Below, piece by piece: positions 5,235-60,327 of a DNA stretch of 64,000 nucleotides. The first letter of the stretch is position 1. Every line of letters begins with the position of its first letter. Source of the DNA: Candidatus Saccharimonadales bacterium (lineage in GTDB: Bacteria; Patescibacteriota; Saccharimonadia; Saccharimonadales; DASZAF01); the NCBI GenBank assembly GCA_035480055.1, contig DATIIB010000001.1, positions 117,453 to 181,452 of the forward strand, written 5' to 3'. The notes under the pieces are model-generated. The model did not search any database. It was not told the origin of the DNA and was given only the letters and a program-made list of their open reading frames with translations. Both the position numbers and the translations under genes were made by a program.

Positions 5235-7697
5235 ATGGGTCTTGGCAAATATTTTGCAAAACGAAAGTTTGCCCACACCCCGGAACCCAAGGGTAAAGTC
5301 GCTGCGCCACATAAAAAGTTAGCCTTTGTGGTGCAGGAGCATCACGCCTCGCAGCTGCATTATGACTTTCGGCTAGAGCTCGACGGCGTGCTCAAAAGCT
5401 GGGCTGTGCCCAAAGGTCCGTCCATGAATCCGCACGAGCGCCATTTGGCTGTGCAGGTGGAAGATCATCCTTTTGCGTATCGTACATTTGAGGGCACAAT
5501 TCCTGAAGGTAACTACGGTGCTGGCGAAGTGATTATCTGGGACCAAGGCACCTACTGGCCGCGCGCCGAGACTACCAATCCAACGACGACCTTACGCCAG
5601 GAACTAGCCAACGGACACCTCACGTTTGTGCTGGATGGCCAAAAGTTACACGGTGAATTTGCGCTGATTAAACTTGATGGAGCCGACAAAGATGCCTGGC
5701 TATTGATCAAGAAAGGAGACGAATATGCAACAACCAAAGATATTACGACCAAGGATGAATCGGTGGTGAGCGGCAAAAAGGTCGACGAATTGGCGGAAAA
5801 ACCAACCCACCTCGAAGCCTTTCCCAAAAAAGCCCTGCCTCGCAAGATTACTCCCATGCTCACCACGCTGGTTGATGAGCCGTTTACCAAAGATGGCTGG
5901 CTGTTCGAAATGAAGTGGGATGGGTATCGCGCGATTGGCACAAAGCATAAAGACGAGGTGGAACTCTACTCACGTAATGGCCTGGACTTTAGCGAGAAGT
6001 TCGCCGCCATTGCCGAAGCGCTGCGCTCGCTCAAGCACGAAGTTGTGGTAGACGGCGAGATCGTGGTGACCGACGAGACTGGCCGGCCGCATTTTGAACG
6101 TCTTCAAAACTGGGGCAGGAAACAAGAGGGGACCTTGCAGTACTGCGTGTTCGATATTTTATGGTATGACGGACGGGATATCCGAGAAATGCCTTTGCAT
6201 GAGCGTAAAAAGCTACTGCGCTCGGTCATTCCCAAGAGTTCCCAAAAATTGATCTTCAGTGACGATGTGGTGCGCGAAGGCGAGTCGTTCTTTCGCTCGG
6301 TCGCGGCGCATCATTTGGAGGGTATGGTTGCCAAACGAGCTGATAGCACTTATCAAGCCGGTATTCGCGGTGGCGATTGGCTCAAGGTTAAGACTCACCT
6401 TCGTCAAGAAGTGGTGATTGGCGGCTTTACCGAAGGCCGTGGCACTCGGACGTACCTCGGCGCACTGTTGGTGGGCGTGTATCACAGAGGAAAATTCGAG
6501 TATGTAGGGCATGTGAATGCAGGTATGCCTGATGATGAACGACGGCTGCTGCGCGACAAACTTAACAAACTCGAACAGCCAGCTTCTTTATTTGAGCAAG
6601 AGCCAAAACCCAATGGCACTGTGCACTGGGTGAGGCCAAGGCTGGTCTGTGAAGTATCGTTTAGCGAATGGACGAGCGAAAACATGCTGCGCCAACCAGA
6701 GTTTGAAGGTTTGCGGCCAGATAAAAACGCGAGCGAGGTGCACCGTGAAAAACCTAAGAAACTAGATGCAAAACATCCCGAGGCCAGTCCGGCCGCAAAG
6801 AAGCCAGGCGCTACCGCCAAGCAACCTTTTGCGTTCACTCATCTGGACAAACTATTCTGGCCCGAACGCGGCTACACCAAAGGCGATCTTATTCATTACT
6901 ACGAATCCGTCAGCCACACCATTCTTCCCTACCTTCTTGATCGTCCGATTTCGATGCTACGGCAGCCCAGCGGCTATAAAGATCACGGCTTTTTCCAAAA
7001 AGATGTCAGCAGCCTGCACCTGCCGCCTTTTGTGCATACCAAAACCATCTTTTCCGAAAGCACCAATGAAAACGTCAAATACATTGTAATGAAAAACCTG
7101 GAAACCTTGCTGTACATTGTGCAATTGGGGTCGATCGAGATTAATCCCTGGAGCTCACGTGTGCCACACCTCAGCAAACCAGACTGGGCAGTGATCGACC
7201 TCGATCCCGAAGGAGTCACTTTTAAAGATGTTATTGCGATTGCCAAAACGGTGCATGAAGTCTGCGAAGAATGGCACATTCCCCATTACCCCAAAACGTC
7301 TGGCAAAACCGGTATCCACATTTTTATTCCCACCGGCGGCGCCTACACGTACGCTCAGGTTCGTGACTTTGCGCATTTGATTGTGCTTGAGGTCAACAAA
7401 CGCCAACCAAAACTTACCAGCCTTGAGCGTAATCCACGCGATCGCCATCACAAAATCTACCTCGACTACTTACAGAATGGCGAAGGTCAAACGCTGGCCA
7501 GCCCCTATTCCGTGCGCCCCACCAAAGACGCTTCGGTTTCAACTCCTCTGCATTGGGATGAAGTTACGATGCGCCTGACGCCGCAGCAATTCACGATCAA
7601 GAATACGCCTGCGCGGCTCCAGAAAGTTGGGGACTTGTGGAAGCCTATACTTGGCAAAGGGGTTGATATCCAAGAAATTCTCAAAACGTTGTCGTGA
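5235..7697 (+). CDS. ligD: ATP-dependent DNA ligase LigD, three-domain (3'-phosphoesterase - ligase - polymerase/primase)
   Basis: N-terminal HHASQLHYDFRLELDGVLKSWAVPKGPS (LigD PE domain). Central EMKWDGYRA (KxDG adenylation motif). C-terminal LigD Pol domain. 820 aa. Confidence 0.85.
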   Translation: MGLGKYFAKRKFAHTPEPKGKVAAPHKKLAFVVQEHHASQLHYDFRLELDGVLKSWAVPKGPSMNPHERHLAVQVEDHPFAYRTFEGTIPEGNYGAGEVIIWDQGTYWPRAETTNPTTTLRQELANGHLTFVLDGQKLHGEFALIKLDGADKDAWLLIKKGDEYATTKDITTKDESVVSGKKVDELAEKPTHLEAFPKKALPRKITPMLTTLVDEPFTKDGWLFEMKWDGYRAIGTKHKDEVELYSRNGLDFSEKFAAIAEALRSLKHEVVVDGEIVVTDETGRPHFERLQNWGRKQEGTLQYCVFDILWYDGRDIREMPLHERKKLLRSVIPKSSQKLIFSDDVVREGESFFRSVAAHHLEGMVAKRADSTYQAGIRGGDWLKVKTHLRQEVVIGGFTEGRGTRTYLGALLVGVYHRGKFEYVGHVNAGMPDDERRLLRDKLNKLEQPASLFEQEPKPNGTVHWVRPRLVCEVSFSEWTSENMLRQPEFEGLRPDKNASEVHREKPKKLDAKHPEASPAAKKPGATAKQPFAFTHLDKLFWPERGYTKGDLIHYYESVSHTILPYLLDRPISMLRQPSGYKDHGFFQKDVSSLHLPPFVHTKTIFSESTNENVKYIVMKNLETLLYIVQLGSIEINPWSSRVPHLSKPDWAVIDLDPEGVTFKDVIAIAKTVHEVCEEWHIPHYPKTSGKTGIHIFIPTGGAYTYAQVRDFAHLIVLEVNKRQPKLTSLERNPRDRHHKIYLDYLQNGEGQTLASPYSVRPTKDASVSTPLHWDEVTMRLTPQQFTIKNTPARLQKVGDLWKPILGKGVDIQEILKTLS

Positions 7698-10177: not shown

Positions 10178-11258
10178 AGGCTGTTGCTTCTTTTTTGCGA
10201 CGCAAGTATTCCACGAGCAGAATGCGACCACAGCCGGCAATCGGAATCGCCACGAGCGCACCAAAGAGGCCACCAAATTCTACGCCAATAATGGCCGAGG
10301 CAAACACGATAAGCGGCGATAAATTGGTAGCAGTGGCTTGAATCCGTGGACGAATAATATAATTCTCGACCTGTTGATACAGAACGTAATACGCGGCAAT
10401 TCCTGCTGCGGCAAATGGCGAGTGAGCCAACGCCACCAAAGTAATAATGACTGTGCCAATAATATGCCCAACCAACGGGATGAGCCCACAGATCAAAACC
10501 ACTCCCGCCAAGGCGATCGGATAATCAATATGCAGCGCAAGAAGCACCGGAAGGATTACCACAGCCGCAATCACCGCCAATACCACCTGCCCGTTCACAT
10601 ACCCTTTGACCACACTGTACATCTCACGGGTCAGCCGCTCGGTGCGTTCATGGTGGCGTTCGGGCAATAGCTCTTTGGCAAGCTTCAGCCAATACGGCCC
10701 TTCCAGCAACATCATAAAGGTCAGCACCAAGATGGTCAGCACCGCAACCACACTTCCTGCAGCCCGGCTCAGCACACCAAATGCGCGGCCACCTGCTTGG
10801 TCAAAATGGCCCGAGAGTTGGCTGGTAATATGTTGCGCCTCATCTTGCAATTTGTACTTACGAATGAGATCACCAACAGGGCCATTCTGCTTTTCAGTTT
10901 GCGCGATTAACTGCGGTGCGGAGCTGACAAAGTGGCTGGTCTGACGGACAAGTGGCGGCACCAGACTTACCATAAATCCACCAAGTGCCAGGGTTACAAT
11001 CACAAAAGCCACAATCGTGGCGATCTTGCGATTTCCACGCCGCTTACCAGGCAATTTATTGCTTAACCAATACACCGGCGCATTAAGAGAAAGGGTCAGG
11101 AAAAAGGCGGTCGCAATCAAAAGAAGCGCATGCCGTGTCCGATTGATAGCCAGTAGCGCACCAATAAAAACCAGACAAATCAACAATGCTCGTACAACAC
11201 TGTGGCCTTCGATCTCAATACGCAGTACATCGCGTTGTTTGTTCAGCGCAGCTTTCAC
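10176..11258 (-). CDS. AI-2E family transporter (PerM/YhhT-like)
   Basis: 360 aa. 7-8 TM helices with the characteristic AI-2E topology. GTG start in ORF track. Confidence 0.6.
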   Translation of the reverse strand: MKAALNKQRDVLRIEIEGHSVVRALLICLVFIGALLAINRTRHALLLIATAFFLTLSLNAPVYWLSNKLPGKRRGNRKIATIVAFVIVTLALGGFMVSLVPPLVRQTSHFVSSAPQLIAQTEKQNGPVGDLIRKYKLQDEAQHITSQLSGHFDQAGGRAFGVLSRAAGSVVAVLTILVLTFMMLLEGPYWLKLAKELLPERHHERTERLTREMYSVVKGYVNGQVVLAVIAAVVILPVLLALHIDYPIALAGVVLICGLIPLVGHIIGTVIITLVALAHSPFAAAGIAAYYVLYQQVENYIIRPRIQATATNLSPLIVFASAIIGVEFGGLFGALVAIPIAGCGRILLVEYLRRKKEATA

Positions 11259-11891: not shown

Positions 11892-12785
11892 ATGGAAGCT
11901 CGCGAGACAACTGCAACCCCTCAATCACAGCACCGTTTTCGGCAAGCGATCATCGCCCTAACCGTCGCCAGCGTCCTGCTTGGGAGCGGCTTCTTTATCT
12001 ACCACAAAACGTTTCTTTCATCAGTGACGCTGGTGCCTCAAAAAGTCGTTGCGGCTGCCTCGTCCAAACCACCCAGCCCCAGCAGCGCCGCCATCGCTAC
12101 CCTGAACAGCCAGATTACCGGTCTCCTTGCCCAACACCCCGAGCTGGATATGTCTGTATCGGTTACCGACATCGCCAACCATCAATCGTATCACTATGGT
12201 GAATCCGCGCCTTTTGTGGCGGCCAGTACGGCCAAGCTTCTTACCGCCTCGTTGTATCTTCACCAAGTGGAGGCCGGACAAGTCGATCTCGATGACCTTG
12301 TAGGCAACGACACGGCTCGCAATCAATTGCAACAAATGATTGAGGTCAGCGACAATGGAGCTTGGGAAGCGCTCAATACCGTCCTTGGCCATCCAGCCTT
12401 AAAAGAGTTTGCCGCCGCTCATGGACTCACCAGTTACGACCCTGATGATAATACGCTGACCTCGAATGATGTGGCGCTGCTCCTGAGTCAACTCTACCAA
12501 AAGCAATTGCTCAACGCTGAGCACACCCAGTTTTTGCTTAATCTCATGCAGAACGCGAACAAAACAGATTACATCGTGGCGACAATTCCAAGCGGCGTCA
12601 CGGTGTACCATAAAGCCGGTTGGCTGGACGATCGCGTGCACGATGCCGCAATTATCGACAACCACACACATCCCTACGTGCTGGTGATCTTTACCAAAAC
12701 TGTTGATGGGAGCGCCTACGACGAGACTGCGGGCCAGGCATTATTCCACGGCATCACCAGCGCCACGCTGCACACGTTTAATTAA
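11892..12785 (+). CDS. class A beta-lactamase-related serine hydrolase
   Basis: SxxK active-site motif (FVAASTAKLL). N-terminal TM anchor. Confidence 0.65.
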   Translation: MEARETTATPQSQHRFRQAIIALTVASVLLGSGFFIYHKTFLSSVTLVPQKVVAAASSKPPSPSSAAIATLNSQITGLLAQHPELDMSVSVTDIANHQSYHYGESAPFVAASTAKLLTASLYLHQVEAGQVDLDDLVGNDTARNQLQQMIEVSDNGAWEALNTVLGHPALKEFAAAHGLTSYDPDDNTLTSNDVALLLSQLYQKQLLNAEHTQFLLNLMQNANKTDYIVATIPSGVTVYHKAGWLDDRVHDAAIIDNHTHPYVLVIFTKTVDGSAYDETAGQALFHGITSATLHTFN

Positions 12786-13426
12786 TCTTCGACCGTAATA
12801 CCAATATTCGCAGCCAATTGCGGAGCAATCATGACCAACTGCAACGAATCAATCTTGAGTCCTTTAAGATCCTGCCAACCACGAATGTCCAACAACTCGG
12901 CCTGTCTGGCATCAACATTCTTGACTTTGCATTGGCCAAATTCGGTCCTTTCCAGATGCGATGAGGTAAAGTTGACATCCACAAGCTCTGCTGCTTGAAA
13001 GTCGGTTTCGGTCAGGTTGCACTCAATAAACTGCACGCGTTCAAGTTTGGCAAACCGGAAGTTAGCCATGTCGAGTTTGCAACCCTCAAAGACCACATCC
13101 TTTAACAAGCTGCGGCTCAAATCTATTCCGCTCAACCGTCCCCCGACAAATCGCACTCGAATGAACGACCCGCCACTGCAGCGGGCGGCCGAAAAATCAG
13201 AAGTCTTCACGACAGTGTCGCTCAGGCTGAGCTTGTCGATTTTGGCTTCGGTGAACGAGACTCTCTCGAGCAAACTGTCATCAAAGGTGAGATTTTTGGC
13301 TTCATTGCCAGTAAAATCGGCTTCGGCAAGCAACACTTGGTCGAGCGTTGCGTCAGCTGTAAGCTGGTGCGCGGTAATTGGAGTAAGGTTTGATACATCC
13401 TTTGGCTGAGGTAGTGATTGTTTCAT
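12782..13426 (-). CDS. pentapeptide repeat protein
   Basis: Runs of A(D/N)LxX pentapeptides (ADFTGNEAKNLTFDDSLLERVSFTEAKIDKLSLSD...). Confidence 0.8.
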   Translation of the reverse strand: MKQSLPQPKDVSNLTPITAHQLTADATLDQVLLAEADFTGNEAKNLTFDDSLLERVSFTEAKIDKLSLSDTVVKTSDFSAARCSGGSFIRVRFVGGRLSGIDLSRSLLKDVVFEGCKLDMANFRFAKLERVQFIECNLTETDFQAAELVDVNFTSSHLERTEFGQCKVKNVDARQAELLDIRGWQDLKGLKIDSLQLVMIAPQLAANIGITVED

Positions 13427-13437
13427 AGATTCTTATT

Positions 13438-13848
13438 CTACAACCATTTAAATTTATCAGGGGTCGAATTTTCATCAAAGTCGGTGTAGTTATTGGTTAT
13501 CTCATCACCTGCTGCAATATCTCGATTAGCACGGAACAGCGGTTCTTCTGAAATCTCAGGCTCAAAAGATACACTTGTGTTGAAATCGGTTGGATCGTGG
13601 TTAGTGTAGCAGGCTGGATCATCGCCTGGCGGTAGTACCCACATCTTGGTAGTAGGTGAAAGATACGCGACACGTTGTACTGCGGTTTTGGTACTTTCGT
13701 TTAAGATATCAAACTCTTCTCTTGATATCTTTTTATCGTGGCCTTCGGTGTACTGCCAGACAATTGTTCCTTTGGGTATGGATTCTAAGGCAAAGACACC
13801 TTTGCCGTCGATGTTGGAGTTGCGTATTTCAACCTGAACTCTGTACAT
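13438..13848 (-). CDS. SET domain protein (putative protein-lysine methyltransferase)
   Basis: GKGVFALESIPKGTIVWQYTG (GxG AdoMet loop), TNHDPTDFNT (NHSCxPN-like), RDIAAGDEITNNY (post-SET ELxxDY-like). Start chosen at MYRVQVE. Confidence 0.65.
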   Translation of the reverse strand: MYRVQVEIRNSNIDGKGVFALESIPKGTIVWQYTEGHDKKISREEFDILNESTKTAVQRVAYLSPTTKMWVLPPGDDPACYTNHDPTDFNTSVSFEPEISEEPLFRANRDIAAGDEITNNYTDFDENSTPDKFKWL

Positions 13849-13907
13849 TGCACTATGATAACAAAATAAAAAGACTCCCGGGGAAGTCTTTTCAATCATA
13901 TACTTTA

Positions 13908-13982
13908 TGGCTCCGGGGAGAGGGTTCGAACCTCCGACCTAGTGGTTAACAGCCACCCGCTCTACCGCTGAGCTACCCCGGA
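13908..13982 (-). tRNA. tRNA-Asn (anticodon GTT)
   Basis: Reverse complement reads TCCGGGGTAGCTCAGCGGTAGAGCGGGTGGCTGTTAACCACTAGGTCGGAGGTTCGAACCCTCTCCCCGGAGCCA. 7-bp acceptor stem, D arm, anticodon loop CTGTTAA, T arm GGAGG/TTCGAAC/CCTCT, encoded CCA. Confidence 0.9.
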
Positions 13983-14037
13983 ATACGAGGGTAATTATAC
14001 TGTTTTAGCGCCGCGAGGTCAATCTGTTCGTCAATAA

Positions 14038-14551: not shown

Positions 14552-15010
14552 TTAGTTTTGTTTAGATGTGGATTGTTGCAAAGCCAACAGACGCGATTTG
14601 GCAGCACTAGCGGCTTCGGCAAAACCCAAAATGTGCAAAGCGCCCACCAGCACATATAGTTCGTCTACCATTTTCTCTTCCAGCTGTTCGGCCTTCAGTT
14701 CGGCTGAGTGGAATTTGTGATTCACGATGTTCACTAACCATTTTTCTTCTGCTGCGCCAATCTTCGGCGCACCGACAAACTCAGGTGTTTTTTGCTTTAC
14801 TACTTCTAATGAGCGAGCGGAACGATTGCGTTTGTGCAAATGGCCTTTGGTGATCAAATTATTAACATGGATAGCGACGGTTGAAACCGACTTGTACCCA
14901 ATACCCCGCATAATTTCGCGGTAGCTCGGACCATAGCCGTGCTGAGAGATAAACTGCTCTATGAAGGTCAGTAACTCGCGCTGCTTTTTGCTGGGACGCG
15001 TCTCATTCAT
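14552..15010 (-). CDS. LexA-type winged-HTH DNA-binding protein lacking S24 peptidase domain
   Basis: N-terminus LTFIEQFISQHGYGPSYREIMRGIGYKSVSTVAIHVNNLITKGHL matches the LexA DNA-binding domain. C-terminal 70 aa are coiled-coil-like, with no Ser/Lys dyad. Confidence 0.55.
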   Translation of the reverse strand: MNETRPSKKQRELLTFIEQFISQHGYGPSYREIMRGIGYKSVSTVAIHVNNLITKGHLHKRNRSARSLEVVKQKTPEFVGAPKIGAAEEKWLVNIVNHKFHSAELKAEQLEEKMVDELYVLVGALHILGFAEAASAAKSRLLALQQSTSKQN

Positions 15011-51082: not shown

Positions 51083-53803
51083 TTATTTACCTGTCGGGTG
51101 ATACCAATGGAAGCTGCCAAGGGGGTTTTCCACGCCGGCCATTGGGGTTCTCCAGGAGGCGCCGCTGGTACTGTATGAGGATGAGGCGACTTTGGTCTGG
51201 AAGTTTGGCTGCGTGCCAACCCACATGTAGGTGTGACTGAGGCTATCTTCGATGGCAATGTCACCTGGTTTTAGTTCTGCAGTGCTGGCGATGTGGCCAT
51301 CGTGATGTTTACCCAGTAGCATGTATTTGTCTGGATGACTCCTGAGATACGGTTCTTGGCCACCCCTGACATTGCCGTTATTGCCATATTTGGGATCAGC
51401 ACCGCTATCTTGCATCACTCGGGTGACGAAGCCTCCACAGTCCACACCGGCGGTTGGGGTGGCGGTTGTTCCACCGCCTACGTATTTACCAGCTTTTACG
51501 GCAGCCCTGACTGCGGCGAGATAGGCGGGCTTGTACTCCGCTGTGGAGTGGTTTCCATACGGTGGGTTGTGGTGTGTGGGCCATGCGTAATCAAGTGCTT
51601 TGCCAACTGCACCGGTTCCATTACCGCCTGCGCAGTCGGCCGTGGTTGCAGCGCCGGTGTTGCCATTATTGGCAGCCGTGGCTTGCGAGGCCGAAACCGG
51701 CAAAGCTTTTTCGATACCATTGGCGATACCCTTGGCGTACTTGGCCTCGTTAAAGGTGCCACCTCTGGCGCCAACTTCGTTGTAGACCCAAGGAACGTTA
51801 CTAAAGAGCTGGACGATCGACATGTTACCTACAGAAGGTAATCCGCGGCTTGTAGGAAACTGCAGGAAGTGCCGGACCGCGGGGCGACCCTCTGCTTTGG
51901 TACGCTCGTCCTTTATTGCTTTGGCGTATCCTTCGCTTTTGTTCACGAGCTGTTGTGCGAGCGGATTCTGGTCAAAGTATTTGGTGTGACTGCCGGTGGT
52001 TCGGTGCGTACGATCAGTGCCGCCTATAGTATCGGCCTTCATGGTCTGAGGAATGACCCACGCTTGACTGCTCCAAGTTTGACTGTCGTCATAGTGCATG
52101 CTCACTGCTAAGTCGGCGTGAGCATTATTAGCAACTTGGGCTCGTTCGATCAAACCAACATTCTGGCTTTCGCTGGCGGCGGTGGGGTTCTCGCCACCCT
52201 TGGTCATAATGACGTGATAGCCAGCCTGTTTGAGCTGCTTAAAGACATCCATAGCGGTGAGCCACATGGCATGTTCCTCACCCGGAGCACCACCGGAATC
52301 TTGGGCCGAAATGCCATCCACGGTTTCTACTTTTGGATTGCTGGTGGTGACATGGCCTGGGTCCAGAACGATGGTAATACCGTTGCTGCCTGCACAGCTA
52401 CAGCTGCCGATATCGCCCTGGCCGGCGGTACTACTCGTTCCAGTTGCGGCAGAGACCGGTGCGCCACCCATCTTGGGGTTGTGTAGTACTTGCACGGCGT
52501 TATCCATGCGAGCGCCTACCAATGCGCCTCCTGATCGTTCGAAGGTCGCTTCCCATTCCTTGGCAACATATCGGGCTTGTTCTTCGGGAGTGCCTGAAGG
52601 TAGTTTGGTGATTGTAGGCAGCGTCTTCCACACAACTTGCGGTCCTTTGGTAATTTCCCACCACAGATAATCCCACTGTCCTTCGAGGGTGTTGTATTTG
52701 GTCCCTTCCCGTTTTTTAAGCGCACTGAGGCGACCGCCGAGCCACTGGGCAATACCATAGGCGCCACTTCCCTGTCCGTTGAATTCGGTAGGATTGAATT
52801 TGGCATTTTCGGAGTGCATGCTGCCGATAATACCTGAGGCAATGATTTTGGCATTGGCTTCGCTTTGCCCCATGGCTATTAATTGTTTGACAAAGAAGTT
52901 GAAGGTTCGGATTTCGTTGTCGCCTCCAGGTATTGAGGTCAGATCGCCCAGGCTTCCACCGCCGGTTTGGTCGGTTGGCGGACAACAAGCGCTGTTATCC
53001 GGTGTGGTGTCGGTGCTGCCATCGAGCTTGGTAAGTGGTGTGCTATCCGGAACTGGAGTGTAGGTAACGATGTCGAGGTTCGACTTAAAGTCCAGCAGCT
53101 TGGCAGTTTCCCACCAGAGGTCAATGCCGCGCTTTACGGTAATTTGCGTGCCAGGATGCGCTGGGTCATCACCGGTCACGTCGGCACCGCCGCCGCCGAT
53201 GTCGCGCTTTTCAGCAATGACGGTCTTGCCTTTGTAGGAAATCGAAAGTTTGGCATGTGGTGGCAAGCCACCCAGTGATTTCCCCATGTCCAGCTCGGCA
53301 AACGAAGCGTACTTGGCGGCGTCAGCTGGTGCAGGATGACCATTAAGGGAGGTTCCGAGTGATTTGCCGTCGGTTCCCAGACCGTTGTCGTCGACACCGG
53401 TATGTTGGTCTTTGTTGCTCGATACCCATGCGCCATTCACAAAGCTTCCGCCGTAGTCGCTGGCGCCAGTAGCCGTGCCGGTGGTAGTAGTTGTTGCACT
53501 GCCGGTTGCAGGAGTGGTAGTGCCACCAAGCGTGTCGGCCGTACCGTCGCCGCCACAGCCTTCAGCGAAGAATGCGCCATCGTTCCGGCGAAGATCGTCC
53601 TGGCTTGGTGGCGCGGTGGGTGTGGTGGCGCTTTGAGCAAACACCACTGCCCCAGCCTGCGTAAAGCTGAAGACCATCACTAGCATCACGAGGGATGCTC
53701 GGGAAAGAATCCCTCCCCATTTCTGTAACCGACTCGTGATGCGTTCCATTGTGCGTTCCCCTTCCCTATTCAACTTTTTTTGTTGCCGTATTGCGTGTCT
53801 CAT
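51083..53803 (-). CDS. secreted tri-domain peptidoglycan hydrolase (lysozyme-like muramidase / N-acetylmuramoyl-L-alanine amidase_3 / NlpC-P60), VirB1/CwlT-like
   Basis: Signal/TM, Thr-rich linker. Lysozyme-like MHSENAKFNP...SGAYGIAQWLGGR (catalytic Glu, GxxQW). Amidase_3 region IVLDPGHV...LAVSMHYDD...FNEAKYAKGIANGI. C-terminal NlpC/P60 with DCGGFVTRVM (Cys) and SHTYMWVG (His). Confidence 0.7.
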   Translation of the reverse strand: MRHAIRQQKKLNREGERTMERITSRLQKWGGILSRASLVMLVMVFSFTQAGAVVFAQSATTPTAPPSQDDLRRNDGAFFAEGCGGDGTADTLGGTTTPATGSATTTTTGTATGASDYGGSFVNGAWVSSNKDQHTGVDDNGLGTDGKSLGTSLNGHPAPADAAKYASFAELDMGKSLGGLPPHAKLSISYKGKTVIAEKRDIGGGGADVTGDDPAHPGTQITVKRGIDLWWETAKLLDFKSNLDIVTYTPVPDSTPLTKLDGSTDTTPDNSACCPPTDQTGGGSLGDLTSIPGGDNEIRTFNFFVKQLIAMGQSEANAKIIASGIIGSMHSENAKFNPTEFNGQGSGAYGIAQWLGGRLSALKKREGTKYNTLEGQWDYLWWEITKGPQVVWKTLPTITKLPSGTPEEQARYVAKEWEATFERSGGALVGARMDNAVQVLHNPKMGGAPVSAATGTSSTAGQGDIGSCSCAGSNGITIVLDPGHVTTSNPKVETVDGISAQDSGGAPGEEHAMWLTAMDVFKQLKQAGYHVIMTKGGENPTAASESQNVGLIERAQVANNAHADLAVSMHYDDSQTWSSQAWVIPQTMKADTIGGTDRTHRTTGSHTKYFDQNPLAQQLVNKSEGYAKAIKDERTKAEGRPAVRHFLQFPTSRGLPSVGNMSIVQLFSNVPWVYNEVGARGGTFNEAKYAKGIANGIEKALPVSASQATAANNGNTGAATTADCAGGNGTGAVGKALDYAWPTHHNPPYGNHSTAEYKPAYLAAVRAAVKAGKYVGGGTTATPTAGVDCGGFVTRVMQDSGADPKYGNNGNVRGGQEPYLRSHPDKYMLLGKHHDGHIASTAELKPGDIAIEDSLSHTYMWVGTQPNFQTKVASSSYSTSGASWRTPMAGVENPLGSFHWYHPTGK

Positions 53804-53820
53804 ATACCCTCTCTCATAAC

Positions 53821-56415
53821 CTATTGCCCCGTCACCGGATCAAGCAGGTCTTGACCATCGAACATTAAGCCTCCCACTGGCGCTGTTTCGTTATCAATCA
53901 GACAGGCAACTTTATCCTTTTGGTGCTCACCAATGGCATCAAGGTTGTTGTCGTCGTTGGGACGGTTATCGGTGACAGCATCGTTATTGTGATTCCATGG
54001 GTCGTCTGTTAAGCAGGGGTCATCAAGAGGAATACCCGCGCTTGGTACGCCAAAGCGATCTTCAGGTAGCTGGTAATCCAGGTAGCTGGCATGTGCAGGC
54101 GAGAGCGCAAGCATGGCATTAGAGAATAGCTTGAAGGGATTAAGTGCGGCAATCAGCGATTGAGGTGAATCGATACCGGTAAATGGCGAGTTTAAGGCAA
54201 ATTGGGTCGCGAGCGATTGACTGTCATCTGATGAGAAAATCCTCTCTTTGAATGATTCCTCGCTGCGCGCCACTTGGTCGTTCTCGGCAGCGTCAGCGGC
54301 AATGGCTTTCGCTTCGGCTTTGCTGAGTTGACGCCCCCCTAGGGCATCAATGGCAAATTTATAGTTAGAGTAATCGTTCCCGATAAAGGCCGCATTCCAT
54401 AAAGGCCCGCCCACTGCCTCCAGTGCATTCCTAAAGAGAGGGTCAAATAAGATCTCGGAAGCCTTAATCAGGAAGGGCGTCACCACCCCTATGAGCTTTT
54501 TGCCCAAGAAGTTGACAAAGTTTTTAACTCCAGGGATCTGAAACAGCGTATTGTCGATAATCCAGCCAAGCAGTTGGTCACTGGGGTGAATTAACCAATC
54601 GTAAATAATTTGGGTAAAGAGGCCGCCGCCCAAAATTCCATCTGCCCATAGTATCCACTGATTACATTCTGGACAGGCGTCTAGGAGCTCTTTGATCGGA
54701 GGGTTTTTATCGAGTCGTTCGTTGTTGCAGGCTGCTGCACCTTTGGGAATTTGCTTGCCATCGTTGCAGGTATACGATCCTTGCTGTCCGGCTGGCGCAA
54801 ACGAGGCTGCACCAAAGGTCCGCTTGAATATTTCGCTCTTTTGAAAGCCAGAGAATTGATCCGAAATCGCCCGCGCTGCCGACGTGTCATAGTTTTTACC
54901 CACTGCCGTCGCTTCGCTGTCGGAGGAGTTAAGGATGCCCATTGCCGGAATGGCCTGTGCGACCACGAGCTCTTTGTGCATAATTTTCAGCGATTTATTA
55001 TTGGGGTCAAGCGTAATCTTTAGCAGCTCATGAAACAGCATCGAGAGCCTGGCAGCCAGGATCGCCTGACCAATAATCGGAAGATCAGAAGTTGCCAGTT
55101 GAGTGGAAAGTTTTTCCAGTGCTGTTTTAAATAGACCTTCGCTAAGGTGTTGCGCCAAAATCTTGGCGCCGGCTGCCACCAATTTATCCACCGATTCTCC
55201 CGAGACTCTCTCTAATGCTTTCTTCCATAAGGACCGCCCCTCCTCAGCTTCGTGGAGGACGTCGCCTTGCTTGGCGCAGTTGATCCGTTGCATCATGCAG
55301 TCCATTAAGAAACGGGAGCCCAGGTCGCCAAATGCCGGCTCGATCAGCCTGGTTTTGATAATTGCTTTCATCGCGTCCTTCAGTGCTAACGCCTTCGCCA
55401 CCGGCGAGAGTTTTTTGACCGGTCCAAACTCGGCTATCTTACAAAAGAACACACATAACGATACGCCGAATGTTTTTCTCATAAAGTTGGCAAAACGTCT
55501 ATCTTGGCCAAAGTCAATAAACCCAACCCGCTTAAACCGTTCAAGCAGATCTTTGGAGAGATCTTTCGGGAGCCCCTTTGAGAGGTCGGCCACTTCGAAC
55601 ACCCCCTTGCTGGTGGTGAAGATCAGTTTTCCCCCTTTCTCCTCAACGTTAACGCCGGTTTTGAGAAGCATTTCGGCAAACTTGCCGTCTTTGTTCCAGG
55701 CTTCCATCATCTTGCCGACTTTACTGTCAGGAAATTTTTTGCCAAGCGAGCGCTTTTTGATACAGTCAATATTTTTTAAACTGCCGCAAGCAACGATATC
55801 TTCGGCCAATGAATGCGCAAGATAGGAGTCGATATAGCGTCGCATGCGTCGATCCATGATAGCTTTATTGAGCTTTTGGGCAAGATGGCGCATCGGCTTT
55901 GAAGTGAATTTGGCTTGGAACGATGGAAATTGTTGAATCCCCAAGATGCTCCCAATAATCAGTGTGACCGCGGCGATCAAACCGCCCGCGGTTTTGCGGC
56001 GGTCGCCCAAAAAGCCTTTTAATTTATTCTTGCCACCAAACTTATTGCCCTTGCCCTTTGGCGTTGGTTTGTACAAGCTATTGCCACCGCCATCGGCATG
56101 GTCCACGCTCTCTTCGTCACCGGGAGGGATCGGCGGCGGGAGCTTTTCGGATTTGTAAAGGCTTCTGGCACCACCTTCGTCCTGAGGTTCAACGTCTTTG
56201 TAGTCTGCATCGGTGAAGTCGTCATGGGCGGTGTCTCCGCCAGCTTGCGCGGAATTTTTAGCGTCCTTGAGTACGTCATCGATGTTATCGATCGTGTCTT
56301 GAGCATTCGCGCTGACCTGATTCGGTTCGCTGGATGACGGATCGAGCGGCTGGTCTTCTTCTGGAAGGTTACTTCTGCCAGAGCGATTACGCTGTTGATA
56401 GATCTGTTGGGCCAT
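53821..56415 (-). CDS. large hypothetical T4SS-associated protein (acidic disordered N-terminus, single TM, ~650-aa ectodomain)
   Basis: 864 aa. N-terminal ~160 aa are D/E/G/K-rich. TM GGLIAAVTLIIGSILGI. Cys-containing C-terminal domain. No recognisable catalytic motifs. Confidence 0.5.
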   Translation of the reverse strand: MAQQIYQQRNRSGRSNLPEEDQPLDPSSSEPNQVSANAQDTIDNIDDVLKDAKNSAQAGGDTAHDDFTDADYKDVEPQDEGGARSLYKSEKLPPPIPPGDEESVDHADGGGNSLYKPTPKGKGNKFGGKNKLKGFLGDRRKTAGGLIAAVTLIIGSILGIQQFPSFQAKFTSKPMRHLAQKLNKAIMDRRMRRYIDSYLAHSLAEDIVACGSLKNIDCIKKRSLGKKFPDSKVGKMMEAWNKDGKFAEMLLKTGVNVEEKGGKLIFTTSKGVFEVADLSKGLPKDLSKDLLERFKRVGFIDFGQDRRFANFMRKTFGVSLCVFFCKIAEFGPVKKLSPVAKALALKDAMKAIIKTRLIEPAFGDLGSRFLMDCMMQRINCAKQGDVLHEAEEGRSLWKKALERVSGESVDKLVAAGAKILAQHLSEGLFKTALEKLSTQLATSDLPIIGQAILAARLSMLFHELLKITLDPNNKSLKIMHKELVVAQAIPAMGILNSSDSEATAVGKNYDTSAARAISDQFSGFQKSEIFKRTFGAASFAPAGQQGSYTCNDGKQIPKGAAACNNERLDKNPPIKELLDACPECNQWILWADGILGGGLFTQIIYDWLIHPSDQLLGWIIDNTLFQIPGVKNFVNFLGKKLIGVVTPFLIKASEILFDPLFRNALEAVGGPLWNAAFIGNDYSNYKFAIDALGGRQLSKAEAKAIAADAAENDQVARSEESFKERIFSSDDSQSLATQFALNSPFTGIDSPQSLIAALNPFKLFSNAMLALSPAHASYLDYQLPEDRFGVPSAGIPLDDPCLTDDPWNHNNDAVTDNRPNDDNNLDAIGEHQKDKVACLIDNETAPVGGLMFDGQDLLDPVTGQ

Positions 56416-56418
56416 TAC

Positions 56419-58362
56419 CTATGCTCCTAATGGAGGCTGGGGTGGACCCACCTCTCCGCCTAGAGTACTCGTAAGGTCTGGCGTGGGTTCAGGTCCGACC
56501 GCTCCGCCTTGAGTGGCTTGAGCGAGTTGTTCGATCTGTTTAATTTGCGCAGGGTTGGTGGTGATGAGTGATGTTTCGGTGGGACTGGCAATCACCTGCA
56601 CATGCACGTGGTTTTGTCCCGCAAACAGTAATCCCTGGCCAACTGGGAACTGAGTGAGGCGTTTTTGCTCTTCGCCAGTAAGGCGGAACACTTGCGCAAG
56701 GATGTCCACGGCCGAAGTTGATTGCTTCAGCAGCACCTGCATTGAAGCGTTGGCGACAATTGCGCGGCCCATGCGCGAACTCATAAAGTCTTCCACGTCT
56801 TGGCTGATCGTGGTCAGACCCAAGTAGTACTTACGGGCGCGTTTTGCCAGGCTAAACATAAAGTTAGCCGAATCTTCGTATTTCATCAGCTGCCATGCCT
56901 CGTCAACGATCAGCATGCGCTTGGTTTGGTCTGATTTGGTCTTGTTCCAGATGTAATTTAAGATGATGTACATGGCGACTGGGCGCAGCTCGTCCTCGAG
57001 GTCACGAATGTTAAAGACCACCATTTTGTTACTAATCTCTACGTTGGACTGCTGACTAAAGATGCCAGCAAATGTTCCCGTGGTGTACTTGCGCAATCGC
57101 TGTGCCAGCTGTGGTCCAGTACCTGCCATGTGCAGCAAGGTGTCGTACAGATCGGCAATCGTTGGCGGCGTGGTGGTGTGGGTTAACGGATCGTTGGTAA
57201 TGCCAGCTTTGGCATACGTGTCGATTAACGCCTGGTCCAGATCGGCTTCTTCCACTGGATTCAGCACTGGCCCGGCTGCGTATCCGGCAGCTACCGCACT
57301 TGCCCCACCCATCATCAGGCGTAACAGTCCATGGAGCGTAATTAAGTTGGAGCGAAGGGCGTTGTCTGCCTCTTCACTATCCAGAACCTGCGGCAGGTCA
57401 AACGGGTTGATACGCGTGGGCGAATTGAGTGAGAGCCGAATGTACGTACCACCAACCGCTTCGCAGAGGCGCTGATATTCGTTTTCTGGGTCGATGATGA
57501 TTACCTCGGTGCCCATCATCATACTGCGTAACGCTTCCAGTTTGACGGTAAACGACTTACCCGCACCAGATTTGGCAAAGACCACCATATTGGCGTTCTC
57601 AAGTGTAAAGCGATCAAAAATCACTAACCCGTTGTTGTGCATGTTGATGCCGTACAAAATGCCATTATCTTGCGTCAGGTCGGCCGAGGTGAATGGGAAG
57701 CTGGTGCTCATGGCGCCAGTGTTCATGTTGCGGCGAATTTGCAACTGGTCAAAGGCCTGCGGAATGGTTGAGTTAAAGCCCTGCTCCATTTGAACGGTCG
57801 CTGGTTTGGAATAGACCAGTTGCTGGCCGAGCACGGTTTCAACCTTGTGTTGGATAAAGTCGAGTTCTTCGAGTGCGGTGGCATACAGCGTGAAATACAA
57901 GCCAAAACGGAAGAAGCGCTCCTCACCCACCTGCAGTTTGTCGCGCAATTCCTCGGCGTCCATAATGGCGGCCTGGGTTCCTGGATCTCGAACCTTACCT
58001 TTTTCGGCATTGATCTGCAGGTCGGCTTCCAACTGACTCACCTTCTTGCGGAGGTTATCGAGCACCACGCGGCTTTCGACTGGGTAGATAAACATCGAGA
58101 TGTCGATTTCTTCGTCCATGTTGATGACCGAGCTTAACCAGCCGGTAAAGATCTGGCGGGGGTAGCCATAGACGTAGAATGTCCGGGCGTAATAGGTGCC
58201 AAGGCGGAAGTAGCCAGATTCGTACTCGAGTGAACTTGGGGCGATAAAGTCCCGAAGTTCACTAATCCCCTTCAGGAACGCTTGACTGACCTCGGCTTGC
58301 TCGCGCATGCGTTGGCGTTGGGCGATTTCCATTGGATTTGATTTTTTACTAAAAAGTCCCAT
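56419..58362 (-). CDS. virB4: type IV secretion VirB4/TrbE/ConE-family ATPase
   Basis: Walker A FAKSGAGKSFTV, Walker B RMLIVDEAWQLM (DEAW motif characteristic of VirB4/TraC). N-terminal CagE/TrbE/VirB-type domain. 647 aa. Confidence 0.85.
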   Translation of the reverse strand: MGLFSKKSNPMEIAQRQRMREQAEVSQAFLKGISELRDFIAPSSLEYESGYFRLGTYYARTFYVYGYPRQIFTGWLSSVINMDEEIDISMFIYPVESRVVLDNLRKKVSQLEADLQINAEKGKVRDPGTQAAIMDAEELRDKLQVGEERFFRFGLYFTLYATALEELDFIQHKVETVLGQQLVYSKPATVQMEQGFNSTIPQAFDQLQIRRNMNTGAMSTSFPFTSADLTQDNGILYGINMHNNGLVIFDRFTLENANMVVFAKSGAGKSFTVKLEALRSMMMGTEVIIIDPENEYQRLCEAVGGTYIRLSLNSPTRINPFDLPQVLDSEEADNALRSNLITLHGLLRLMMGGASAVAAGYAAGPVLNPVEEADLDQALIDTYAKAGITNDPLTHTTTPPTIADLYDTLLHMAGTGPQLAQRLRKYTTGTFAGIFSQQSNVEISNKMVVFNIRDLEDELRPVAMYIILNYIWNKTKSDQTKRMLIVDEAWQLMKYEDSANFMFSLAKRARKYYLGLTTISQDVEDFMSSRMGRAIVANASMQVLLKQSTSAVDILAQVFRLTGEEQKRLTQFPVGQGLLFAGQNHVHVQVIASPTETSLITTNPAQIKQIEQLAQATQGGAVGPEPTPDLTSTLGGEVGPPQPPLGA

Positions 58363-59393
58363 TATGATGCTCCTCCAGCCAGGTTGGGTTGCGGCGCTTG
58401 TCCATCACCCTTACTGACCACGATGCTGGCCATGTCTTCAAACGATCCAAGTGGCTGACGAGTGGCGGTGTCAGGGTTATAGACATCGTAATAGAGTTCG
58501 ATCAGCTCTTTGGTGTCCAGCGGTGCGGCTTGTACACCAAGCTGCAGCAAGCCGTTCATCACGCTTTGGACGCGGTTTTGAAGTTCGGTCTTGGCTTTAA
58601 CCAGCGTGTTCTCGTCAATCACCAGCCGCTGTTTTTTGCCGCCCAGGCCACCAAACAAGGTTTTGGTATCGCCAAGTACTTGTTTGGTATTTGCAACCGG
58701 GAAAAACGGAATCACAATGTAAAACTGCTTGTTCATAATGTTGGTTTGCTCCACGAGCTGCTCGATGTAGTAAATGTAGTCCTCCATCAGCATAGCCAGG
58801 AGCATGTTGTCTTGCTCGGAGCGAATCTTGTTGAGTTTCTCGAGATATGGCCGCATGTCGACCTTGCGTGAACGAATCACGATCTGGATGTCGAAGTACA
58901 GCGAGTTAAGAAAGTTCTGATAGCTAAACTCCACTGCCTCGCGCTCGGCTGCGCTCATGAGGTCAAAGTTGATCGAGCGAGCCATGACCACCGCCCGGAA
59001 GCTGCCGTCATTCATAATCACAATACCGTCACGAACCTCAGCAATCTCTAATGTATTTTGAGTACTGTTGGGGTTAGTTTTTACCGGTGGACCATTTGGA
59101 CGTGGACCTGGACCTTGCGCGGTTGCTGGCATGGCGCTGGGAGCATTTGGCAGCGGCTGTGGAGCGGGCGGTAATTGTTGATTTTGGTATGCAGGTTGTT
59201 GCGGCGCTGCAGCAGCTTGAGGCGGCTGTTGCGGAGGCTGAGGTGGTAATCCAGCCATTGGGTTTGGTAGGCCTTGAGGAGTTTGTTGCTGTTCCTGCAT
59301 GGTCCGAGTATACGGTACAGGAGCAGGAACTTGTCCTGGCTGCAAGTTCTGCTGTGGTTGATACCCTTGTTGTTGGTTAGTATCGGGATACAT
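58362..59393 (-). CDS. T4SS-associated protein with Pro/Gln-rich disordered N-terminus
   Basis: First ~115 aa are >50% P/Q/A. C-terminal ~200-aa globular domain (IVIMNDGSFRAVVMARSINFDL...). ATGA overlap with virB4. Confidence 0.5.
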   Translation of the reverse strand: MYPDTNQQQGYQPQQNLQPGQVPAPVPYTRTMQEQQQTPQGLPNPMAGLPPQPPQQPPQAAAAPQQPAYQNQQLPPAPQPLPNAPSAMPATAQGPGPRPNGPPVKTNPNSTQNTLEIAEVRDGIVIMNDGSFRAVVMARSINFDLMSAAEREAVEFSYQNFLNSLYFDIQIVIRSRKVDMRPYLEKLNKIRSEQDNMLLAMLMEDYIYYIEQLVEQTNIMNKQFYIVIPFFPVANTKQVLGDTKTLFGGLGGKKQRLVIDENTLVKAKTELQNRVQSVMNGLLQLGVQAAPLDTKELIELYYDVYNPDTATRQPLGSFEDMASIVVSKGDGQAPQPNLAGGAS

Positions 59394-59431
59394 GTAAAGT
59401 AGTCGCTCCCACCCCTCTTATCCAACGATGC

Positions 59432-60319
59432 CTAGTGGAGTGATATCACTACCTCTTCCGAAGGAAGGGTGTGGGCTTCCCGCGCAATAGCACTCACCGT
59501 CAAGTCGTTGTTGTTCGCTAACCGTATTATATCAGGTGAGACTTGGTTGGGTACAGCCGTATCTGCAGGGGCAGACGTTGTAGTTTGGTCATCATTGTCG
59601 CCTAATGGACTAATTACCTTTTGTCGCATGTCGCTTGGATATGGGTTAAAGTGCATGCCTGACGTCCCTACTCCAACGCCTGGGGCGTGCCGCAATTGTT
59701 CACTGGCCGTAGCTTGCATGCGGTGCATTCTTTCGATTGCTTCCAGACGGGCATCGCTCGCTTGTTGCTCAATCAATACCTCAAATTTCTGCGAAACCTT
59801 GGCCTGCTCGTCCATAATGTCGGTATTGATGGCGTTTTCTAACTCGCTGCGCGGTGACGCAACCTTTACCAAGCGGTCACTCGGAGTGGTTACCAAGCCT
59901 TTGGCAGCCCAGCCTCGACTGTCCATCAGGTTGGCCAGATTGCTCAGACGACTTTTAACTTCAGGCTGAGTAATATCGCGAACGCGCTTTATCTCGAGCT
60001 TTTTGGGCGCGGTAATCACTATGCGTTGGTCAAAGCCATCTTGGTCCCAAATGCGGCGGTGCGGCTTGATATAAAAACGGATCAGTGCCGCCAAGTAGAC
60101 TTCAACCGGTTGATCTTTACGGTGCACAAATCCTAGTACTCCAAAGATCACCAAGAATGGCAACATGATCGTGGCGAGTGGAATGGCGATGCGTGAGAGC
60201 ACAAAGGCCATGTAAGCAGCACCAAAGAAGAGTAAGACAAAGATGAGCTGCTTGAGCGAGAATGGCCCAAGGAGCTTGTCTTCGGCTTCGACATCTTGAG
60301 GAACTTTGTAGGTTGCCAT
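59432..60319 (-). CDS. T4SS-associated membrane protein (VirB3/ConD-like TM hairpin plus soluble C-terminal domain)
   Basis: Two adjacent TM helices near the N-terminus (LIFVLLFFGAAYMAFVL; IPLATIMLPFLVIFGVLGFV), then a ~200-aa hydrophilic domain. Confidence 0.5.
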   Translation of the reverse strand: MATYKVPQDVEAEDKLLGPFSLKQLIFVLLFFGAAYMAFVLSRIAIPLATIMLPFLVIFGVLGFVHRKDQPVEVYLAALIRFYIKPHRRIWDQDGFDQRIVITAPKKLEIKRVRDITQPEVKSRLSNLANLMDSRGWAAKGLVTTPSDRLVKVASPRSELENAINTDIMDEQAKVSQKFEVLIEQQASDARLEAIERMHRMQATASEQLRHAPGVGVGTSGMHFNPYPSDMRQKVISPLGDNDDQTTTSAPADTAVPNQVSPDIIRLANNNDLTVSAIAREAHTLPSEEVVISLH

Positions 60320-60327
60320 GCGTACTC

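Follow-up and report, generated by a model that had tools for sequence, protein, structure and literature searches.

The subject of this analysis is a small gene of the SET-domain family that lies directly behind a tRNA gene in the genome of Candidatus Saccharimonadales bacterium. The analysed stretch, hereafter termed the window, comprises 64,000 nt of contig DATIIB010000001.1 (assembly GCA_035480055.1, positions 117,453 to 181,452). Its sole tRNA gene, as detected by ARAGORN, is tRNA-Asn(GTT), and the SET gene lies immediately downstream, as a preliminary description of this DNA had stated; it is on the same strand, with 59 nt between the 3' end of the tRNA and the SET start codon. Eukaryotes methylate histone lysines mainly with SET-domain enzymes; to our knowledge, the roles of such enzymes in bacteria that never meet eukaryotic cells are almost unstudied. 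In literature searches, no paper was found in which SET domains are connected with Saccharibacteria, Patescibacteria or the candidate phyla radiation. The features of the locus are compiled in Table 1.

Table 1. Features of the SET locus and its immediate surroundings (window coordinates)
Feature	Position	Strand	Basis
SET-domain protein gene, 136 aa and TAG stop	13438..13848	-	ORF list, Pfam, family alignment
Motif I, G15-K-G17 (GxG loop, SAM-binding)	13798..13806	-	Sequence; aligns to GLG of the MLL4 SET domain
Motif III, T82-N83-H84-D-P-T-D-F-N90 (NHxxxPN equivalent, without Cys)	13579..13605	-	Sequence; aligns to YINHS of MLL4
Motif IV, G-D-E116-I-T118-N-N-Y121 (ELxF/YDY equivalent, catalytic Tyr)	13486..13509	-	Sequence; aligns to GEELTYDY of MLL4
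tRNA-Asn (GTT), CCA end encoded	13908..13982	-	ARAGORN; Rfam RF00005, 68.5 bits
Sigma-70-like tRNA promoter, TTGACC, 17 nt, TATAAT (11/12 matches; consensus match only)	13994..14022	-	Promoter scan
Intrinsic-terminator-like hairpin and U-run between tRNA and SET	13867..13894	-	Terminator scan
Extended -10 TGTTATCAT, 6 nt before the SET ATG	13855..13863	-	Sequence
Pentapeptide-repeat protein gene, 214 aa (Qnr/MfpA-like)	12782..13426	-	Pfam Pentapeptide_4, 81 bits; NCBIfam Qnr similarity below cut-off

The longest reading of the SET open reading frame (ORF) spans positions 13438-13899 and would encode 153 aa, while initiation at the ATG at 13848 yields a product of 136 aa that begins with MYRVQ. 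In the family alignment, M-Y or V-Y opens all 29 aligned homologues at exactly the position of the shorter start. Since the homologues begin there and the 17 additional codons of the form starting at 13899 overlap the terminator hairpin behind the tRNA gene, the 153-aa form was dismissed, and the true start is the ATG at 13848. The resulting protein is identical to NCBI entry HSX27953.1 (Saccharimonadales bacterium, 226-kb contig), for which a SET-domain call is already public in the NCBI annotation.

The call of a SET-domain methyltransferase, which had been made from sequence motifs in the preliminary description, is borne out by profile comparison as well as by the predicted fold. The protein matches the Pfam family PF00856 with 44.9 bits (E 1.7e-11), exceeding the gathering score of 22.4 bits and covering profile positions 1-104 of 105. 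All three signatures that had been named (GKG, TNHDPTDFN and GDEITNNY) are found in the sequence; moreover, the Asn-His pair and the tyrosine, on whose loss the call was to fall, are retained as N83, H84 and Y121 and are invariant among the homologues. The latter, which are 45-84% identical to the protein, all measure about 135-140 aa. Conservation within the homologue clusters extends over each of the signatures: in the loop that binds S-adenosylmethionine (SAM), G17 is present in 88 of 88 clusters and G15 in 87; N83, H84 and N90 of motif III, and likewise Y62, are unchanged in all 88; and E116, T118 and Y121 of motif IV are unchanged in each of the 85 homologues that reach this region. The cysteine and the proline of the canonical NHSCxPN motif are not conserved, the zinc-binding post-SET module is absent, and the protein contains one cysteine, which is not conserved.

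A search of the Protein Data Bank (PDB) by sequence alone gave marginal matches only (E>=0.01), in which the motifs nevertheless align to those of MLL4; a search by fold was therefore needed. The AlphaFold2 model of the protein, built on the family alignment, has a mean predicted local distance difference test score (pLDDT) of 90.7 and a predicted template modelling score (pTM) of 0.83. When this model was compared with the PDB by Foldseek, 311 chains matched at E<=1e-3, and all of the best 50 listed are SET enzymes, with Set7 of Schizosaccharomyces pombe (5h6z), the SET domain of MLL3, vSET of PBCV-1 (3kma) and MLL1 at the top (probability 1.0, template modelling (TM) score 0.55-0.74). Furthermore, the ratio of non-synonymous to synonymous substitution rates (dN/dS) is 0.037 relative to locus L056, the closest relative with usable DNA (84% identity), with dS being saturated. 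The Pfam match, the modelled fold, the presence of all four SET motifs, the invariant active-site residues and the strong purifying selection together indicate that the enzyme is almost certainly active. An alternative reading holds that the protein is a non-catalytic SET-like (beta-clip) binding module or the product of a decaying gene, for which the missing cysteine of NHSCxPN and the missing post-SET zinc cluster could be cited. This is highly improbable in view of the invariance of the SAM-binding and catalytic positions over 88 clusters, the low dN/dS, the intact ORF and its conserved length; active minimal SET enzymes such as vSET are also devoid of the zinc post-SET region (PMC10117894).

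With respect to its overall build, the protein resembles vSET of PBCV-1 and Set7 of S. pombe, which are likewise bare cores of about 119-147 aa without pre-SET or zinc post-SET regions, share the GxG, NH and catalytic Tyr elements and come closest to the model in structure (Foldseek E 7e-7 to 4e-6, TM 0.59-0.74). The resemblance is nevertheless limited: sequence identity amounts to 24% or less, and a C-terminal segment, F124-D125...W135, is specific to the family of the Saccharimonadales protein. In addition, vSET and Set7 methylate eukaryotic histone H3 (K27 and K37), whereas a histone substrate is not expected in this bacterium.

The short interval between tRNA-Asn and SET contains signals that would separate the two genes transcriptionally. 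The terminator-like hairpin folds at -12.3 kcal/mol (z -3.5), a stability that none of 200 shuffles equalled, and hairpins equivalent in place and differing in sequence are found in the related loci L056, L055, L017, L063 and L062. At the junction (13855-13894) the U-run of the upstream hairpin passes directly into the TGn of the extended -10 of SET, an architecture that is kept in the same five loci despite their differing hairpin sequences. No Shine-Dalgarno (SD) sequence lies upstream of the SET ATG. In the family as a whole, 41 of 66 loci carry a TAnnnT hexamer 5-9 nt ahead of the SET start, compared to 9.5 expected from shuffles, and 25 of these 41 also feature the TGn extension. These signals lead us to predict a leaderless SET mRNA that arises from a promoter of its own: the terminator would end the transcript of the upstream tRNA-Asn, and the extended -10 would start a separate one at or near the AUG. 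Co-transcription with the tRNA was dismissed as the cause of the adjacency in the clade of the window, given the intervening terminator and extended -10 and the conservation of this architecture in relatives; in loci of the Parcubacteria type, in which a gap of 1-23 nt separates tRNA and SET, co-transcription is possible.

The same type of gene start is not confined to SET. At least 13 of the 56 window genes, both genes flanking SET included, carry a -10-like TAnnnT hexamer 5-9 nt before the start and no Shine-Dalgarno sequence (for example the starts at 11258, 11892, 13426, 13848, 14514, 17131, 28039, 39331 and 41057), and operon-internal genes of the window carry SD-like sequences. This pattern in the DNA suggests that leaderless mRNAs may be widespread for first genes in this Saccharimonadales genome.

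The position behind a tRNA gene recurs in the SET family. Sixty non-identical loci of the core family offer 200 nt or more of sequence upstream of SET. In 11 of the 60, a same-strand tRNA gene ends 1-163 nt before the SET start, compared to 10 of the 447 other genes in the same loci, which served as the control (odds ratio 9.8, Fisher p 3.6e-6, not corrected for relatedness). The tRNAs concerned are Asn and Gln-TTG (three loci each), Gln-CTG, Glu, Ser, Trp and Met, and a total of seven identities points to several independent events. That the family recurs at tRNA flanks is a real but modest comparative signal. In two loci of a distant clade, L124 and L129, a tRNA-Gln gene lies 6 nt before SET.

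In two relatives, SET arrived at this position as cargo. In the first, L020 (4888-5518), SET lies between tRNA-Gln and an exact 13-nt repeat of the tRNA end and is the sole gene of the 546-bp insert so delimited (0 of 200 shuffles reached the score). The second, L012 (2384-5941), comprises 3.5 kb in which tRNA-Pro is followed by a LigT-like, an S51-like and a hypothetical gene, by SET and finally by a 19/20 copy of the tRNA end. Another arrangement was observed in L063 (422-4904), where tRNA-Asn precedes 4.4 kb of unrelated genes, and these are bounded by a 15-nt repeat of the tRNA end that lies 96 nt before SET. Behind this repeat, a terminator hairpin, a -10 and SET follow one another as in the window, so that the locus corresponds to the window arrangement with an island inserted in front and SET itself outside the repeat-bounded island. 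In L055 and L061, tRNA-Asn and SET are separated by 4.7-5.2 kb of variable genes, which include TIR, CdiA_C, LexA-like, rve transposase or integrase and APH genes. No integrase was found in the repeat-bounded segments of the relatives.

In the window, a repeat of the 3' end of tRNA-Asn was found nowhere in the 64 kb, whether the query was 32 or 20 nt long (up to 3 mismatches allowed), consisted of 12-mers or was aligned locally and compared with shuffles. Neither did an integrase occur among the annotated SET neighbours between 5 and 22 kb (not every window ORF was scanned), in line with the earlier remark that none is nearby. The pairing of tRNA-Asn with SET is common to the window, L056, L018, L055, L061, L063 and L106; beyond it, the window has nothing in common even with its nearest relatives, in which synonymous sites are saturated. 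Because the pair was kept while dS reached saturation and other synteny was lost, it appears to be long-standing in the clade of the window, in which tRNA-Asn is a hot spot where later islands land.

At the level of the family, the earlier equation of the tRNA flank with horizontally acquired cargo does find support. The tRNA enrichment, the inserts of L020 and L012 and the mixed SET tree are in its favour, as is base composition: at 43.3%, the GC content of SET is the lowest among the 56 window genes (49.6 +/- 2.7), although z is only -2.3 for a gene of 411 nt. Low GC and the taxon-mixing tree are also hints of a cargo origin in the window itself, where integrase and att-like repeat are lacking; earlier cargo that later insertions had displaced outward would be indistinguishable from a resident gene. 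A recent acquisition in this genome, by which an integrase-mediated island delivered SET to the 3' end of tRNA-Asn, would be supported by the same base composition, by the repeat-bounded segments of L020 and L012 and by an enrichment that spans seven tRNA types. Such an event is nonetheless decidedly unlikely, considering that repeat and integrase are missing, that the tRNA-Asn-SET pair is old and shared with six relatives despite saturated dS, and that SET in L063 lies outside the repeat-bounded island. Compared with tRNA-associated genomic islands in general, the family shares the position immediately 3' of a tRNA, the bounding repeats in L020 and L012 and the variable cargo in L055, L061 and L063; it differs by the lack of integrase and repeat in the window and by the lack of an integrase in the repeat-bounded segments of relatives as well. 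In classical tRNA islands, it is usually the integrase gene rather than the cargo that abuts the tRNA.

To survey the distribution of the family, a representative genome of each of 185,579 species was scanned with a peptide pattern, which recovers 78 of the 88 known members. This yielded about two dozen loci of the core family, labelled as Saccharibacteria, Parcubacteria/Paceibacterota, metagenome-assembled genomes (MAGs) of Lloyd-, Morani- and Shapirobacteria and, in the case of two MAGs, Bdellovibrionales. For one of these two, L016 ('uncultured Bdellovibrionales'), four syntenic genes and the tRNA-Gln-SET junction recur in the Moraniibacteria locus L010. The other, L014, bears the same label, groups with L016 in the SET tree and has no shared neighbours; the Bdellovibrionales label of both is probably a binning or classification error. 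A sister clade that is more divergent, matching the family profile at E 1e-27 to 1e-30, occurs in MAGs of Taylor- and Kaiserbacteria as well as a few others, and a distant SET clade in Pseudolabrys. The neighbour-joining tree of SET, which is without support values, mixes taxa.

An exhaustive profile search of 1.84 billion representatives returned 13 clusters at E<=1e-30, 728 at E<=1e-10 (clustered at 50% identity) and 2766 at E<=1e-3, most of them stand-alone proteins of 120-140 aa. Moreover, reviews count SET genes in more than 500 bacterial genomes (PMC10117894, PMC3980110). The statement of the preliminary description that bacterial SET proteins are uncommon was thus too strong: small SET proteins are not rare in metagenomes, while this particular family is.

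Across the core-family loci examined, no conserved neighbour, fusion or regulator of SET was found that would point to a substrate. The family is largely confined to Patescibacteria, patchy and without a conserved gene partner. Conserved neighbourhood was hence dismissed as a clue to function, there being none in the core family and the pentapeptide-repeat neighbour being unique to the window. The sole conserved neighbourhood among the SET clades considered here belongs to a distant Parcubacteria clade (L024-L028, L026/L115/L116 and L120), in which two SET paralogues in tandem are flanked by a conserved multi-pass membrane protein of ~200 aa without Pfam match and by a membrane histidine-kinase-like protein of ~550 aa (HATPase_c). 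In L078 (699-2441), a 42-nt element (CCCCAAAAACAAAAyCTCCATCCCTAAAGCGTATAAT...) precedes three consecutive small genes, of which SET is the first, and partly a fourth; related promoters occur in L066, L070, L071 and L077. From its sequence, the element appears to be a promoter module common to an array of small genes, each of which would be transcribed on its own. Short direct repeats that tightly flank SET in several metagenome loci were dismissed as evidence of mobility, as those of L078 are copies of this promoter element and not target-site duplications.

With regard to a possible role outside the cell, the protein is a bare, acidic SET core of 136 aa (pI 4.6). The check for secretion signals proposed in the preliminary description came out negative: neither a hydrophobic N-terminus nor a signal peptide was detected in the protein (maximum Kyte-Doolittle score 0.72), and the first SET strand is already formed at residues 2-10 of the model, starting at residue 2 or 6. 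A nuclear localization signal (NLS), ankyrin repeats, an N-terminal extension and further Pfam domains are likewise absent from the 136 residues. The protein does not belong to the AnkI/LegAS4 family of NCBIfam (NF043024), scoring 20.5 bits where the cut-off is 550; its match to the SET region of that family is weak (E 1.7e-4 with NCBIfam, E 0.26 in a separate search). No PADLOC defence family and no PHROG family was matched, and no relatives were found in IMG/VR; membership in a defence system and a phage origin of the gene were dismissed on these grounds.

The lead of the preliminary description was a nucleomodulin of the kind of NUE, RomA/LegAS4, BtSET and BaSET, that is, a secreted enzyme methylating eukaryotic histones. 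The resemblance of the SET fold to eukaryotic histone methyltransferases and the weak match to the SET part of LegAS4/AnkI are in keeping with it, and the catalytic domain is indeed shared with NUE of Chlamydia, RomA/LegAS4 of Legionella, BtSET of Burkholderia and BaSET of Bacillus. These nucleomodulins, however, are larger, are equipped with secretion or nuclear-targeting signals or ankyrin repeats and stem from pathogens of eukaryotes, whereas the Saccharimonadales protein consists of the SET core, lacks export features and falls far below the LegAS4 cut-off. No viral or eukaryote-associated context was found. Cultivated Saccharimonadales live on other bacteria rather than inside eukaryotic cells. 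With few exceptions the homologues, like the organism itself, are Patescibacteria MAGs, a group whose known partners are bacteria (PMC7427843). A histone-methylating effector is accordingly hardly credible for this gene.

More weight is due to an effector acting between bacteria, the main rival to a cytoplasmic methyltransferase, according to which the protein would be exported into the host bacterium, for instance by a type IV secretion system (T4SS), and would methylate host proteins there. A monoderm-type T4SS cluster is located at 51083-63219 (-), 37 kb from SET; it encodes a VirB4/TraG-like ATPase (56419-58362), a PrgI-family protein (59432-60319) and a 906-aa cell-wall hydrolase with lysozyme and amidase domains (51083-53803), together with several large proteins without Pfam match. 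Systems of this type have been described for Patescibacteria (bioRxiv 10.1101/2025.01.22.634366). The accessory, patchy, low-GC and taxon-mixing character of the gene also fits an effector, as do the TIR, Fic, CdiA_C, Zeta-toxin and SNase genes beside which SET is found in relatives. On the other hand, the protein is a SET core alone without secretion signal or delivery domain, SET is unlinked to T4SS genes in every locus examined, PADLOC and PHROG gave no match, and the toxin-like neighbours are not conserved. On balance, this explanation is unlikely, albeit the most serious of the alternatives. A bolder version, in which SET is a small mobile cassette of Patescibacteria that was repeatedly captured at tRNA 3' ends and encodes a methyltransferase used on or against the host bacterium of these epibionts, possibly after delivery by the T4SS, is a long shot; if true, it would represent the first protein-lysine-methylating effector acting between bacteria.

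The explanation that we prefer is that the gene probably encodes a catalytically competent, stand-alone, minimal SAM-dependent protein lysine methyltransferase that is cytoplasmic and acts on one or more abundant basic bacterial proteins. The acidic enzyme would operate in the bacterium's own cytoplasm; by analogy, candidates for its one or few abundant basic targets include a nucleoid-associated, a ribosomal or a translation protein. Ribosomal proteins and elongation factors are also among the substrates of eukaryotic SET enzymes. Among the prokaryotic SET enzymes, Go1-SET of Methanosarcina mazei and cpnSET of Chlamydia pneumoniae set a precedent for chromatin proteins as endogenous substrates: the former acts on MC1-alpha and the latter on Hc1, both being abundant basic DNA-packaging proteins of the respective organism (PMC3980110, PMC10117894). 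It is on account of these two cases that an endogenous target is favoured here, the likeness of Go1-SET and cpnSET to the Saccharimonadales enzyme being functional only. We know of no MC1 or Hc1 family member in Patescibacteria. As for the genomic setting, SET would constitute its own transcription unit, and its location would reflect a family-wide tendency toward tRNA 3' flanks, which may serve as insertion sites for foreign segments in these genomes; in some relatives, islands have been inserted between tRNA-Asn and SET. The adjacency would then reflect neither co-transcription with the tRNA nor a functional link to tRNA-Asn.

Several points weigh against this cytoplasmic methyltransferase. 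The step to an endogenous target is one of analogy only, and the leaderless start is a prediction. The gene is rare, with its two dozen or so core-family loci among all species representatives scanned, has the lowest GC content of the window and is in relatives sometimes situated among genes of the toxin or defence type (TIR, Fic, CdiA_C, Zeta toxin); this profile suits a housekeeping modifier no better than it suits an effector or a conflict gene. Moreover, the tRNA enrichment ignores phylogeny, and its control comprises all genes instead of accessory genes only.

In the window, SET is surrounded by genes for pentapeptide-repeat, class-A beta-lactamase-like, DUF5666, AI-2E transporter, hypothetical, LexA DNA-binding-domain, GtrA and Wzy_C proteins. 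The pentapeptide-repeat gene starts 11 nt past the SET stop, and a -10-like TAGAAT overlaps the SET stop codon; the gene may be co-transcribed with SET. No homologue of it adjoins SET in relatives, so that this pairing is confined to the window. A class-A beta-lactamase-family protein with an N-terminal hydrophobic segment is encoded at 11892-12785 (+) and converges on the pentapeptide-repeat gene with an overlap of 4 nt. Upstream, a 152-aa protein (14552-15010, -) carries a LexA DNA-binding domain (Pfam 55.8 bits) without the S24 peptidase domain and would, judged by its domain content, be a LexA-like repressor incapable of self-cleavage; a full LexA with S24 is present in the L055 island adjoining SET. 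At a greater distance, the window encodes a full LigD of 820 aa (5235-7697, +), whose three domains are a phosphoesterase, an ATP-dependent ligase and a primase-polymerase; the reduced genome thereby contains an enzyme of non-homologous end joining.

The SET gene is an uncharacterised member of a well-known kind of enzyme, ordinary and already annotated, and the practical value of the finding is modest: a single small, soluble and easily expressed protein for a substrate screen. In comparative terms, the family offers a hint that tRNA 3' flanks are sites of gene exchange in these genomes. Since a clearly active minimal SET enzyme is conserved in Patescibacteria, which are ultra-small and depend on a host, one may ask which bacterial protein carries the methylated lysines and for what reason the gene is kept in so streamlined a genome.

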